From Archangium sp. (GTDB taxonomy: Bacteria; Myxococcota; Myxococcia; Myxococcales; Myxococcaceae), in assembly GCA_031367385.1 (NCBI GenBank), contig JANLPS010000161.1, positions 1 through 39,880 of the forward strand: 39,880 bases of DNA, read 5' to 3'. The position numbers and the translations under genes are program-made. Shown here in pieces: positions 1-2,352 of this stretch. The notes under the pieces are model-generated. The model was given only the letters and a program-made list of their open reading frames with translations. It was not told the origin of the DNA and ran no database searches. Within the stretch, counting starts at the first letter, position 1. Each line of letters starts with the position of its first letter.

Positions 1-11
1 GCTACACCCCA
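1..11 (-). tRNA. 5' fragment of a tRNA, probably tRNA-Gln (truncated by window edge)
   Basis: Minus strand reads TGGGGTGTAGC, i.e. a 7-nt acceptor arm starting with U1 followed by TAGC, 3 nt downstream of tRNA-Gly. A U1/GGGG start is typical of bacterial tRNA-Gln. The anticodon lies outside the window. Confidence 0.55.
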
Positions 12-14
12 ATG

Positions 15-87
15 AGCGGGCGGCGGGAGTCGAACCCGCGCGTGTCAGTTTGGAAGACTGATGCCTTTTCCGCTTGGCCACGCCCGC
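15..87 (-). tRNA. tRNA-Gly(TCC), CCA not encoded
   Basis: Cloverleaf with acceptor GCGGGCG/CGCCCGC plus U73, anticodon arm TCAGT-CTTCCAA-ACTGA and T-arm GCGGG-TTCGACT-CCCGC. It is followed by CAT, not CCA. Confidence 0.9.
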
Positions 88-95
88 ATGTGTTG

Positions 96-167
96 TACCG
101 CCGCAGGGACTCGAACCCTGACCTCTCCGTTTAAAAGACGGGTGCTCTGCCTTCGAGCTCCGACGGC
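96..167 (-). tRNA. tRNA-Lys(TTT), atypical (G8, G14), CCA not encoded
   Basis: Acceptor GCCGTCG/CGGCGGT plus A73, D-stem GCTC/GAGC, anticodon arm CCCGT-CTTTTAA-ACGGA and T-arm CAGGG-TTCGAGT-CCCTG. The conserved U8/A14 pair is replaced by G/G. Confidence 0.8.
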
Positions 168-242
168 AAGCCTCTGCGCACCGCAGCTCTCGTTTCTTCA
201 CCGTGTTCATGGTCGACCTCTGTTCAGCGTGGGACTTCGAGT

Positions 243-314
243 TGGCACGGAGGGAATCGAACCCTCAACCTCGCGCTGAAGAGGCGCTTGCTCTTCTTGT
301 TGGGCTACCGAGGC
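243..314 (-). pseudogene. Degenerate tRNA-Lys(CTT)-like pseudo-tRNA
   Basis: T-arm GAGGG-TTCGATT-CCCTC and anticodon arm (A)GCGC-CTCTTCA-GCGC(G) are present. The acceptor stem (GCCTCGG vs CCGTGCC) has mismatches and overlaps the T-stem, the D-loop lacks GG and position 37 is C. Confidence 0.65.
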
Positions 315-315
315 G

Positions 316-392
316 TGGCACGGCAGGAAGGAGTCGAACCTTCAGCGTCGGGTTTTGGAGGCCCGTGCCCTTTCCGATGGGGCTTCTGCCGT
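316..392 (-). tRNA. tRNA-Trp(CCA), CCA encoded, atypical (A8, C14)
   Basis: Acceptor ACGGCAG/CTGCCGT plus G73-CCA, D-stem GCCC/GGGC, anticodon loop CTCCAAA with a C31-A39 mismatch and T-arm GAAGG-TTCGACT-CCTTC. Confidence 0.88.
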
Positions 393-418: not shown

Positions 419-454
419 AAGAAAAGAGGCCGGGAGCTTTCGCCACCCGGCCTC
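419..454 (-). terminator. Intrinsic terminator / attenuator hairpin upstream of the tRNA array
   Basis: Minus strand GAGGCCGGG-TGGCGAAAGCT-CCCGGCCTC followed by TTTTCTT, a perfect 9-bp stem ending ~26 nt upstream of tRNA-Trp. Confidence 0.75.
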
Positions 455-481
455 CAAGAAGTCTCCACGTAGGAGAATCCT

Positions 482-517
482 CTAAGAGCTGGGGAGCTGG
501 CGACCGCATTGATTCAT
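482..517 (-). CDS. Putative attenuator leader peptide MNQCGRQLPSS (11 aa)
   Basis: ATG AAT CAA TGC GGT CGC CAG CTC CCC AGC TCT TAG. The stop lies 27 nt upstream of the terminator stem, and the 3' half of the ORF can pair with the terminator 5' arm and loop. The SD is weak. Confidence 0.45.
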   Translation of the reverse strand: MNQCGRQLPSS

Positions 518-1269
518 GGGGAAGTTGCTCAAAACGCAATCGGGAAACACGATGCCGAGTCCGGACCGAAAATCAGGGCGCGCGGCTTCCACCGTTTCTT
601 GATGCCACATCGCGCTGTATGCAATTGAAGCCATGGCGGGTGTCGCTCCGGGCAATGGAGACGCGGCCGCTTGGGATGTCTGACGAGGCTCGTGTCGAAC
701 TTCTCAAAAACGCAGAGCGACAACATGCTGAGCAGCCGCCACATGTTCAGGCTCGCGCCCATGTTGATGCCTTGCGACCAGCTTTGGAAACGCGGCGGGG
801 GCGGGGAGGGTCAGGCAGTCGAGAGACAGTGTCGGAAATCAACGCAAGCACGAGGTCCCTCAGCGAGCCTCACGGGCAGCAGCGACCGCCGTCAATGCCG
901 CATGCAGGTTCGACGGCAGCCCATACGTCCGGCCGAAGTCGAGGAGCTGATTCAAGCTGTGGCTAAACTCCCGCCCAATCTGCGCGGAATTGAGGGCGAT
1001 GAGTGCGAGGTTGGGTCCCGTGAAGTTCATCGCCTCCGAAAAATCACGAAGGGTCTCTTCCACTCGATTCGTCAGGAATTCCTCATTGGCGGAGCTGAGC
1101 CAGAAAACATCTGCTCAGAGCGAGGCCACTTCTGGCTCGTCTCGGACGTCGGGCCGCCAACAGCAGCTTCCGGACCATCCCCGTCACGCACAGCACGCCG
1201 TAGCCGGCGCTCGGCGTGAAACGGGTCAAAAGCCCGCGTCGCCACCGAACAGGCGTTAGAACGCAGGAG

Positions 1270-2352
1270 GTGCCGGAGCAGACCGCTGACGTTCAAGAAA
1301 TGCGAATTCGACTCGAGGGCCGTGTCGAGCGGCTCGAGCATGCACGCCACGAGCTCGAGGCACTTTCGTCATTGCTCGATGACCGGTGGCCTCGGCGCTT
1401 GCCATGGCAGGTCGAGCGTGTACGGCTGATCGCCGACCTCCCGGCCATCGACGAAGCCATGAGCGCCCTCCGAGCGCTGCCGCAAACCCACGCCCTGGCA
1501 CATTCAGTCGAGCAATCGCGTCGCACCCTCGAGCGCCTCGCGGGAGCCGCCTGGTCATCACTCGGCGACTCGCCCACGGGTCAATCACTCGACGCCTTGC
1601 TGCTCGGCCTGCTCGAACGCGCGCCCATCGACATCGGCTATTCGACTTCGGCCGCAGGGTGGCCGGTGGGGTTCACGATTCTCGCTGGCACCGCGGCGCT
1701 GGCCTTCAGTCAGACCTGGCCGGTCATCATCGGCTGCGGGCTCGCGGTGCTGGCGAGCCTGCTGGCCTGGTACTTCGCGCCCCGTCGAATCTGGGAGATG
1801 CGCTCGTCGAGCATCGTGATTCGCACGCCGAAGCTGCGCGAGCTGCCCTTCAGCGCGATCGAGCGCGTCGAGCAGCTCAACGGCACGGTCGTGGTGCACC
1901 ACACCGAAGAAGGCGTTCGCGTGCAGGAGTCACTCGAGTGCGACTCGCCAGCCGACCTGGCCGCGTTGCTCACCTTGCATCGCGCGCGCAAGGTGCCTCG
2001 AGCCGCCGACCGCCGTGAAGACGCGGTGGTCACCGCTGCGAGGTGGGGTGAGGTCGACGGAGCCATTCTGGCCTTCGCCCGAGGTGTGTTTTTCGTGAAT
2101 CAAAACAACTTATTGCGGGGCTTCGTCGTGCCCCCACGGCTGCTCTTACAAGAGCTCGCCTTGTTGACCGACGACGCGCTCGAGGCCCTCGGAGCGAGCC
2201 TCGACGCGGGCGAGTTCTGGCCCGCCGGGCAGTGCCGGGTCACCACCGGCCAAAGTTCAAACGAGCGAGTGCTCCACCTGGGCCAAGCCCGAGCCGTCAC
2301 CGCCCCGGTCACCGCCGAAGAGGCCGCACGGCTCGAGCGCTGGTTCGCGTAA
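1270..2352 (+). CDS. Hypothetical membrane protein (N-terminal helical region, two TM helices, PH-like C-terminal region)
   Basis: Long ORF with host-like codon usage and a hydrophobic hairpin (WPVGFTILAGTAALAF...LAVLASLLAWYF). Start is uncertain (1216, 1270 or 1300). Confidence 0.7.
   Translation: MPEQTADVQEMRIRLEGRVERLEHARHELEALSSLLDDRWPRRLPWQVERVRLIADLPAIDEAMSALRALPQTHALAHSVEQSRRTLERLAGAAWSSLGDSPTGQSLDALLLGLLERAPIDIGYSTSAAGWPVGFTILAGTAALAFSQTWPVIIGCGLAVLASLLAWYFAPRRIWEMRSSSIVIRTPKLRELPFSAIERVEQLNGTVVVHHTEEGVRVQESLECDSPADLAALLTLHRARKVPRAADRREDAVVTAARWGEVDGAILAFARGVFFVNQNNLLRGFVVPPRLLLQELALLTDDALEALGASLDAGEFWPAGQCRVTTGQSSNERVLHLGQARAVTAPVTAEEAARLERWFA

Follow-up and report, generated by a model that had tools for sequence, protein, structure and literature searches.

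L-arrays are described, in the available part of PMC8421152, as long, co-oriented and non-periodic runs of supernumerary tRNA genes with redundant anticodons and a patchy distribution, linked to HNH genes and proposed to be silent in normal growth and induced by translation stress; for Archangium gephyra DSM 2261 the dataset of that study gives an array of 12 genes. The only L-array control that we found described is that of the trn operon of Anabaena sp. PCC 7120, which, according to the accessible sections of PMC10272220, is repressed in trans by TrcR, a ribbon-helix-helix protein, on repeats over a sigma-70 promoter. The control of other L-arrays is left open in the part of PMC8421152 that is available, and the words 'attenuat' and 'leader' are absent from its main text.

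In whiB7/wblC, a variable uORF with a broad choice of amino acids (in M. smegmatis all but Cys) precedes a Rho-independent terminator with a competing antiterminator, and poor translation results in read-through (PMC10274678, available in part). The targets of WblC in S. coelicolor include six tRNA genes, which are reached in trans (PMC7157823, available in part). No paper on the direct attenuation of tRNA genes or arrays was found in a library that covers few subscription papers. The attenuators of trp, his and phe have a leader peptide with runs of one amino acid, together with alternative terminator and antiterminator hairpins.

The locus described here brings together a known kind of array and a known kind of switch, a pairing that was not found in print. 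It lies in the window (the whole stretch of 39,880 nucleotides that was analysed), which is the entire contig C232 of the draft genome (7.97 Mb, 65% GC, 98% complete) of a sediment myxobacterium. The genome is placed in the Myxococcaceae on the leader that its family shares with GTDB records titled Myxococcaceae, Archangium and Hyalangium, and its tmRNA tag looks myxobacterial. The tRNA units at the edge of the window form the 5′ end of an array of about 20 supernumerary tRNA genes, and the leader before them is likely, in our judgement, a ribosome-sensing attenuator, with the array transcribed only when translation falters. Like L-arrays, the array is long, co-oriented, non-periodic and redundant in its anticodons, with a distribution that may be patchy, and its relatives have the HNH link, but in this genome HNH and rtcB genes are unlinked to it. 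Unlike the trans repressor TrcR of Anabaena, the predicted control is a uORF-terminator switch in cis behind a promoter-like motif of the ECF type. In contrast to the trp, his and phe leaders, the array leaders possess no run of a single amino acid and would gate a non-coding RNA. As with whiB7, the uORF ends just before a predicted terminator and the predicted antiterminator overlaps the end of the uORF. However, whiB7 gates a transcription factor and its regulon, whereas here the tRNA block itself would be gated, so that the input and the output of the sensor would be the same molecules. By this analogy the array leader would act like a whiB7 leader without being one, having tRNA-Trp and not whiB7/wblC downstream. 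The features are collected in Table 1.

Table 1. Features of the array and its leader in the window, listed in the direction of transcription.
Feature	Position	Strand	Remarks
Promoter-like motif GTCAG-N16-CGTC (ECF-sigma type)	660..684	minus	50 nt before uORF start
Shine-Dalgarno-like GGAG	646..649	minus	11 nt before ATG
Leader uORF, 50 codons	482..634	minus	stop 27 nt before GAGGCC of the hairpin
Predicted antiterminator	440..503	minus	last uORF codons and stop pair with terminator 5′ arm; small spacer hairpin closes
Predicted intrinsic terminator, GC-rich hairpin and UUUUCUU	419..455	minus	folding
tRNA-Trp(CCA)	316..392	minus	ARAGORN, Rfam 50.7 bits; CCA encoded; array type, A at position 8
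Likely pseudo-tRNA-Lys(CTT)	about 241..315	minus	ARAGORN, Rfam 29.5 bits
Unstructured 74-nt spacer between Lys-CTT and Lys-TTT	168..241	minus	fold z +1.39
tRNA-Lys(TTT)	about 95..167	minus	ARAGORN, Rfam 53.9 bits; CCA not encoded
tRNA-Gly(TCC)	about 14..87	minus	ARAGORN, Rfam 64.0 bits; CCA not encoded
tRNA-Gln(TTG) 5′ end, truncated by contig end	1..11	minus	synteny

A first-pass annotation, made from the sequence alone, had read five tRNA or tRNA-like units head-to-tail at the edge of the window. ARAGORN and Rfam (cut-off for tRNA 29 bits) find four whole units on the minus strand between 392 and 14, beyond which lies the start of the fifth, Gln-TTG; ARAGORN at a lowered threshold added only noise. 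The spacers read from the sequence (1, 74, 8 and 3 nt) agree with those given at first. The unit then called a probable Gln is identified as Gln-TTG by synteny with G153 and G217, in both of which Gln-TTG lies 2 nt after Gly-TCC and has a 5′ start identical to the window unit at 11-1. The description of Lys-CTT as a pseudo-tRNA also holds, the unit having two acceptor-stem mismatches and C37 (by eye) and reaching just 29.5 bits; its MFE fold is not a cloverleaf, and it is likely a pseudogene. The window Trp is 96-99% identical to the array Trp of relatives G153 and G222 against 64% to the housekeeping Trp of its own genome, and for Lys-CTT the figures are 79-81% against 66%. For Trp, Lys-CTT and Gly taken together, identity is 79-99% to the array copies of these relatives versus 64-70% to the host's own. 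With ARAGORN numbering, U8 is replaced by A or G in the array Trp, Lys-TTT, Asp and His, and the array Phe has G37; tRNAs altered at these positions may escape some modifications or nucleases.

The array was said to continue past the window edge, and it does, joining contig C4 across a gap of 420 nt. In each of the runs X1, X2 and X4, one record spans window base 1 and C4 base 2395 with exactly 420 nt between them; the assembly may itself derive from these runs, so the records establish the join rather than an independent occurrence. On C4 there are ten tRNA genes and a partial Pro-CGG at the contig end (order Pro, Ile, His, Asp, Phe, Ala, Arg, Met, Met, Val, Leu). Within the gap, what can be seen from short matches and one loose end agrees with Gln-TTG, Gln-CTG and Asn-GTT, ordered as in G153, and by its length alone the gap leaves space for two further units. 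The joined array thus has about 20 units over about 1.7 kb, co-oriented, closely spaced and non-periodic. In the His-Asp-Phe part of C4 (L060:1994-2167), records of X2, X4 and X5 diverge from the assembly inside the 3′ end of tRNA-His; X4 lacks cover at 2081-2160 of C4 and X5 also contains the assembled form, so the divergence probably reflects a variant strain in which part of the array is replaced or interrupted by an insertion. Beyond the array, C4 carries a peptidase-like ORF (named by eye).

The units had been proposed to be an accessory set, and this is borne out by housekeeping copies of Trp-CCA, Gly-TCC, Lys-TTT and Lys-CTT on contigs C33, C353 and C373, so that the window units are not the sole genomic copies; nor does the array end with them. 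The conditional expression proposed for the set now has a predicted switch in cis behind it; no RNA run was listed as containing the stretch, which has no bearing on expression. A comparison of scores had been suggested as a check, and in Rfam the housekeeping copy has the higher value for all four whole window units (housekeeping/array bits: Trp 55.8/50.7, Gly-TCC 77.4/64.0, Lys-TTT 75.3/53.9, Lys-CTT 73.9/29.5). Over the array, 13 of 14 whole units are above the Rfam cut-off, His being below it, and the median of these 13 is 53.9 bits versus 66.5 for housekeeping genes (34 of the 43 in the genome). Anticodons are duplicated elsewhere in the assembly for 4 of 4 whole window units and for 10 of 14 whole array units; for Asp-GTC, Ile-GAT, Ala-TGC and Val-TAC, the array copy is the only one in this draft assembly. 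The rRNA operons appear to be unassembled (1 of 5 signature words found), and the missing second copies of these four are probably due to unassembled repeats such as these operons. A tRNA-Sec is also present in the genome (C488, 6937-7031).

The missing CCA of Gly and Lys-TTT was read correctly at first pass; as a sign of atypical genes it fails, since CCA is not encoded in 38 of the 43 housekeeping tRNA genes, nor in 13 of the 14 array genes that are whole, making its absence the norm of the genome, which has two nucleotidyltransferase-family genes. The argument from rare codons is weak. That the array supplies tRNAs for A-ending codons rare in a GC-rich host agrees with the codon usage (AAA 23% of Lys, GGA 6% of Gly, GTA 2.5% and GCA 7% of their families) and with the five units whose anticodon starts with U. 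However, these are just 5 of 18 identified array units, most of the others reading common codons; housekeeping Lys-TTT, Gly-TCC and Gln-TTG exist, with AAA and GGA already read by them, and anticodons starting with C or G predominate in many related arrays. We regard rare-codon supply as barely credible, and return to the leader.

Upstream of Trp the leader runs from the promoter-like motif through GGAG, the uORF and a small hairpin to the terminator hairpin. The Shine-Dalgarno-like element is weaker than in most relatives, which have AAGGAG or GGAGG. The uORF uses 19 of the 20 amino acids (no Lys); its peptide gave no NCBIfam match and is at most 36% identical to that of any relative, with an N-terminus that can be aligned with the leaders of group B. 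The terminator hairpin (MFE -25.5 kcal/mol, z -4.75, equalled by none of 200 shuffles) is the genome's single copy of the strict pattern, and its U-run ends 26 nt before Trp. The antiterminator is predicted to be a single long stem that occupies the complete 5′ arm of the terminator (MFE -31.2 kcal/mol, z -2.09, equalled by 5 of 200 shuffles). A simple scan for promoters and terminators called neither the promoter motif nor the hairpin, no sigma-70 consensus promoter was seen in 1-1300, and in Rfam the leader had no match at cut-off (best 21.3 bits versus 41).

The last codons of the uORF and its stop are predicted to pair with the 5′ arm of the terminator before the 3′ arm is made, and the RNA that remains downstream of a ribosome footprint at the stop is predicted to fold into the terminator. 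If whiB7 is taken as a guide, a timely ribosome at the stop would cover the uORF tail, the terminator would form and transcription would end near 419. If a drug, a shortage of charged tRNA or tRNA cleavage slowed the ribosome, the tail would be free to form the antiterminator, and the polymerase would enter the array, the precursor of which would be cut into tRNAs with CCA added by host enzymes. With 50 codons and 19 amino acids, the leader would respond to a shortage of nearly any tRNA, and the tRNAs then made would end the stall, so that the loop closes as a negative feedback. It is by analogy that we infer translation of the uORF, termination, induction and a benefit of the switch.

The order of promoter-like motif, uORF, hairpin with U-run and tRNAs is seen across the family. 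The hairpin pattern is present in 30 of 208 family genomes, with 0 matches for reversed-pattern controls, and all 30 loci have an ATG uORF with its stop 24-40 nt before the hairpin and a tRNA T-arm no more than 330 nt past it; related genomes are not independent in these counts. As picking loci by the pattern is circular, arrays were selected again by an array-type Phe marker, found in 60 of 401 genomes of the phylum, and 32 new loci were fetched. Among the 25 marker-picked family loci (two scored by eye, their hairpin being missed by the search expression), 18 have the full cassette and 7 do not: two have promoter and uORF with a broken terminator, two only the promoter, and three are remnants. 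With nine or more tRNAs, the full cassette is present in 13 of 14 marker-picked loci. Outside the family, six marker matches were not arrays or were a single tRNA, and G245 has a 13-gene array. Within the family the marker occurs in 45 of 184 genomes (a few of them by chance) and in 0 of 21 in one genus, and one clade retains a fixed array locus.

A scan of GTDB gave at least 119 stretches with the hairpin pattern, 80 of which have long flanks. Among the matches listed, these 80 have a short ORF led by a Shine-Dalgarno element in 15 of 15 loci with arrays versus 5 of 65 without, all array loci are titled Myxococcaceae or Myxococcales, and the cultured carriers are Archangium gephyra, A. violaceum, A. 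lansingense and Hyalangium versicolor. In metagenome matches, tRNAs follow in 16 of 16 and a uORF can be read in 15 of 16. Some loci have other layouts. Leaders are doubled in the tandem arrays of G213 C16 (L071) and the divergent arrays of G164 C31 (L211), and L140 has two uORF-hairpin units in series ahead of one array. In G245 C112 (L223, another family), the array has a different leader, in which a TTGACA-type promoter, a short ORF, a boxA-like word and a hairpin followed by a long U-run can be seen by eye. The reduced arrays of G071 (L203) and G223 (L222) have the promoter immediately before Trp and no leader. At L199-L201 and L204, leaders of 21-23 codons rich in His, Phe and Arg stand before tRNA-His, Phe and Arg, and these might be narrowed sensors.

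The frame and the stop position of the uORF are conserved and its peptide sequence is not. Its lengths are 21-62 codons and change by whole codons only, dN/dS in three groups is 0.89, 1.09 and 0.54, GC3 exceeds GC1 and GC2 in 30 of 30 uORFs, and clustering of 64 peptides at 45% identity yields 11 clusters. If the short ORF were an ordinary gene for a small protein, followed by a terminator of its own, and the tRNAs were expressed without regulation by leaky read-through or from an unseen promoter, the coding-like GC3 would be accounted for. This would also agree with a promoter motif that is common to 20 of 32 housekeeping tRNA units, and with the mini-arrays of G071 and G223, where the promoter stands directly before Trp. 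However, dN/dS near 1, the spread of lengths and the number of peptide clusters are not what a functional protein would show, whereas the stop keeps a distance of 23-40 nt from the hairpin, and the short interval between U-run and Trp in the window is too little for a promoter past the terminator; we consider a small-protein gene very unlikely.

The attenuator reading calls for pairing between the uORF tail and the hairpin arm. In nascent leaders the probability of this pairing is above 0.5 in 45 of 49 and above the mean of shuffled tails in 48 of 49, with a median of 0.78 versus 0.29 for shuffled tails (40 shuffles each); for the window it is 0.77 versus 0.40, with about 7% of 40 shuffles as high. 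In 26 aligned group-B leaders, 87% of cells pair (long helix 90%) as against 37-53% when slid by 1-3 columns. Covariation is thin, with 4 pairs changed on both sides and 86 of 500 shuffles as high, in a test where the 5′ arm of the hairpin is fixed by the search pattern, and a duplex test on the window alone was not significant (P 0.55). For 28 of 30 loci, equilibrium folding of the full leader gives the terminator with a probability above 0.8 (0.97 for the window); as the terminator wins at equilibrium, the switch would have to be kinetic.

The U-tracts of most relatives are weak, and together with the failure of the simple scan to call the hairpin this agrees with a translated uORF under Rho-dependent polarity or pausing, in which case the hairpin would serve for pausing or processing rather than for intrinsic termination. 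A further hint of Nus or Rho comes from the spacers of related arrays, where 31 of 51 leader rows share a conserved motif 50-320 nt past the terminator (e.g., L024, L061, L140, L296), which we tentatively take to resemble the boxA antitermination element of rRNA operons. The motif had no match in the window, and in 5 genomes it could not be placed in the rRNA operons; the 74-nt spacer of the window is possibly a decayed copy of it (by eye). On the other side, UUUUCUU stands behind a strong hairpin in the window, the conserved tail-arm pairing is what an antiterminator requires, and simple polarity predicts the opposite sign, with less read-through when translation fails. Control by Rho or pausing is accordingly held to be improbable beside an attenuator.

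The breadth of amino acids in the leaders is above proteome expectation in 6 of 7 clusters of long leaders (combined Z 3.3) and near or below it in four clusters with shorter leaders. The nearest relative of the window uses all 20 amino acids, Archangium-type leaders use 15-18, and for the 19 of the window P is 0.06-0.12. A universal leader with all 20 amino acids was considered and rejected, as the Archangium-type and short leaders do not fit it.

The promoter-like motif was found in 48 of 49 array leaders (of 51 leader rows, two without downstream sequence were left out). With a matrix built without the window, the window motif ranks 27 among 70,938 scored genome sites. GTCAG-N16/17-CGT(C/A) also precedes 20 of 32 housekeeping tRNA units (e.g., C502 17960, C454 2006, C234 2644, C316 13665, C345 2419 and C23 5232) and 0.47% of random 300-nt windows, on which grounds its being an array-specific promoter was rejected. 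It is also seen before YqeY-like (C261) and ArfB-like (C321) ORFs (by eye). The motif may define a regulon of tRNA genes under an alternative sigma factor. In relatives, TTGAC is found upstream of many housekeeping tRNA genes, so GTCAG may be a second promoter, read by the alternative sigma factor. The promoter of ECF41 is TGTCACA-n16-CGTC and its one target is the neighbouring COE gene beside the ECF41 gene (PMC3426412, in the part available). Its -10 element and spacing are identical to those of the array motif and its -35 also starts with TGTCA; however, the -35 of the array motif is (T/C)GTCAG and stands before many tRNA genes, which does not agree with an ECF41 regulon. A candidate reader of the motif is a 219-aa ECF sigma factor encoded on C516 (7345-8004, minus strand; L234:3346-4005), which has the motif 57 nt upstream of its gene. 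Sigma factors of this type were found in 13 of 31 genomes searched, and a looser motif lies within 200 nt of 11 of the 13 orthologues, as autoregulation would give. Among the 34 window ORFs scanned there was no ECF gene of the sigma-70 family, and in G081 a similar-looking sigma ORF lies about 3.5 kb from the array (by eye). Nothing relevant on the motif in Myxococcus was found in the literature searched.

RNA-repair genes in the rest of the array had been proposed as something to look for. No rtcB, HNH or Ro60 gene was seen flanking the array; the rtcB genes of the genome are on C240 and C478, unlinked to it, and TROVE was not found in the 98%-complete genome. Two HNH genes lie away from the array on C525 (L235:3154-3693 and 978-1550), one of which is 62% identical to the HNH that follows the arrays of relatives. 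The window itself carries core genes such as smc. Between the leader and smc there is an unassigned 378-aa ORF (1216-2352, plus strand) with coding-like GC3, and 2366-39625 is ordinary, with SMC, an HtrA-type protease, a sigma-54 response regulator, a TldD/PmbA pair, and FHA, LysR, DJ-1, PilZ and VWA proteins. In 5 relatives, the roughly 1.5 kb next to the 3′ part of smc contain no tRNA, and the sequence that separates array and smc here has no match in them; since the distance in the window is 2 kb, more than the flank compared, a mobile location of the array is only hinted at.

In one of 17 viral matches, a 194-kb contig (L296), there is the same hairpin with a uORF whose tail pairs with it, followed by Trp, Thr, Tyr, Lys-CTT, Lys-TTT, Gly-TCC, Gln-TTG and Gln-CTG; it has 15 tRNAs in 1.5 kb and a sigma-70-like promoter (by eye). 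The other 16 viral matches have 0-1 tRNA. At the level of sequence, this contig links phage with the chromosomal arrays, and its layout could also mean that the array was left behind by a phage or other mobile element and is decaying, with a leader that once functioned and a tRNA set now irrelevant to the host. Several features would suit decay, namely the pseudo-Lys, a His under the Rfam cut-off and the lower array median, the HNH lost from the array, the boxA-like motif not found in the window, and the records of X2, X4 and X5 that leave C4 within His. In addition, a same-genus array ends at a transposase-like ORF (by eye) and many relatives have just 2-6 genes left. However, in the window the promoter motif, open frame, antiterminator and terminator are intact despite the low identity of the uORF to its relatives, and nearly all of the whole units remain above the cut-off. 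Moreover, the arrays of several relatives of cultured type are followed by HNH and AAA genes that are the same in each, which points to long vertical retention. A relic is on balance unlikely, if less so than the other alternatives.

In its wider form, the attenuator reading is that spare tRNAs are maintained in the Myxococcaceae under a switch in cis that corrects itself. A near-whole-code leader would measure decoding and release replacement tRNAs on its failure, for instance on antibiotic stalling or anticodon-nuclease attack. The cassette would be shared with large phages, and its promoter would depend on an ECF sigma factor that regulates its own gene and is used by most housekeeping tRNA genes as well. 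We put forward this wider form tentatively, its chance of being right in full being somewhat short of even. As the cassette is present in cultured species, the design of the switch can be tested, and the leader could serve as a compact general sensor of translation stress. If the reading is true, a second lineage would reach spare tRNAs on translation stress, by way of an attenuator that gates non-coding RNA directly.
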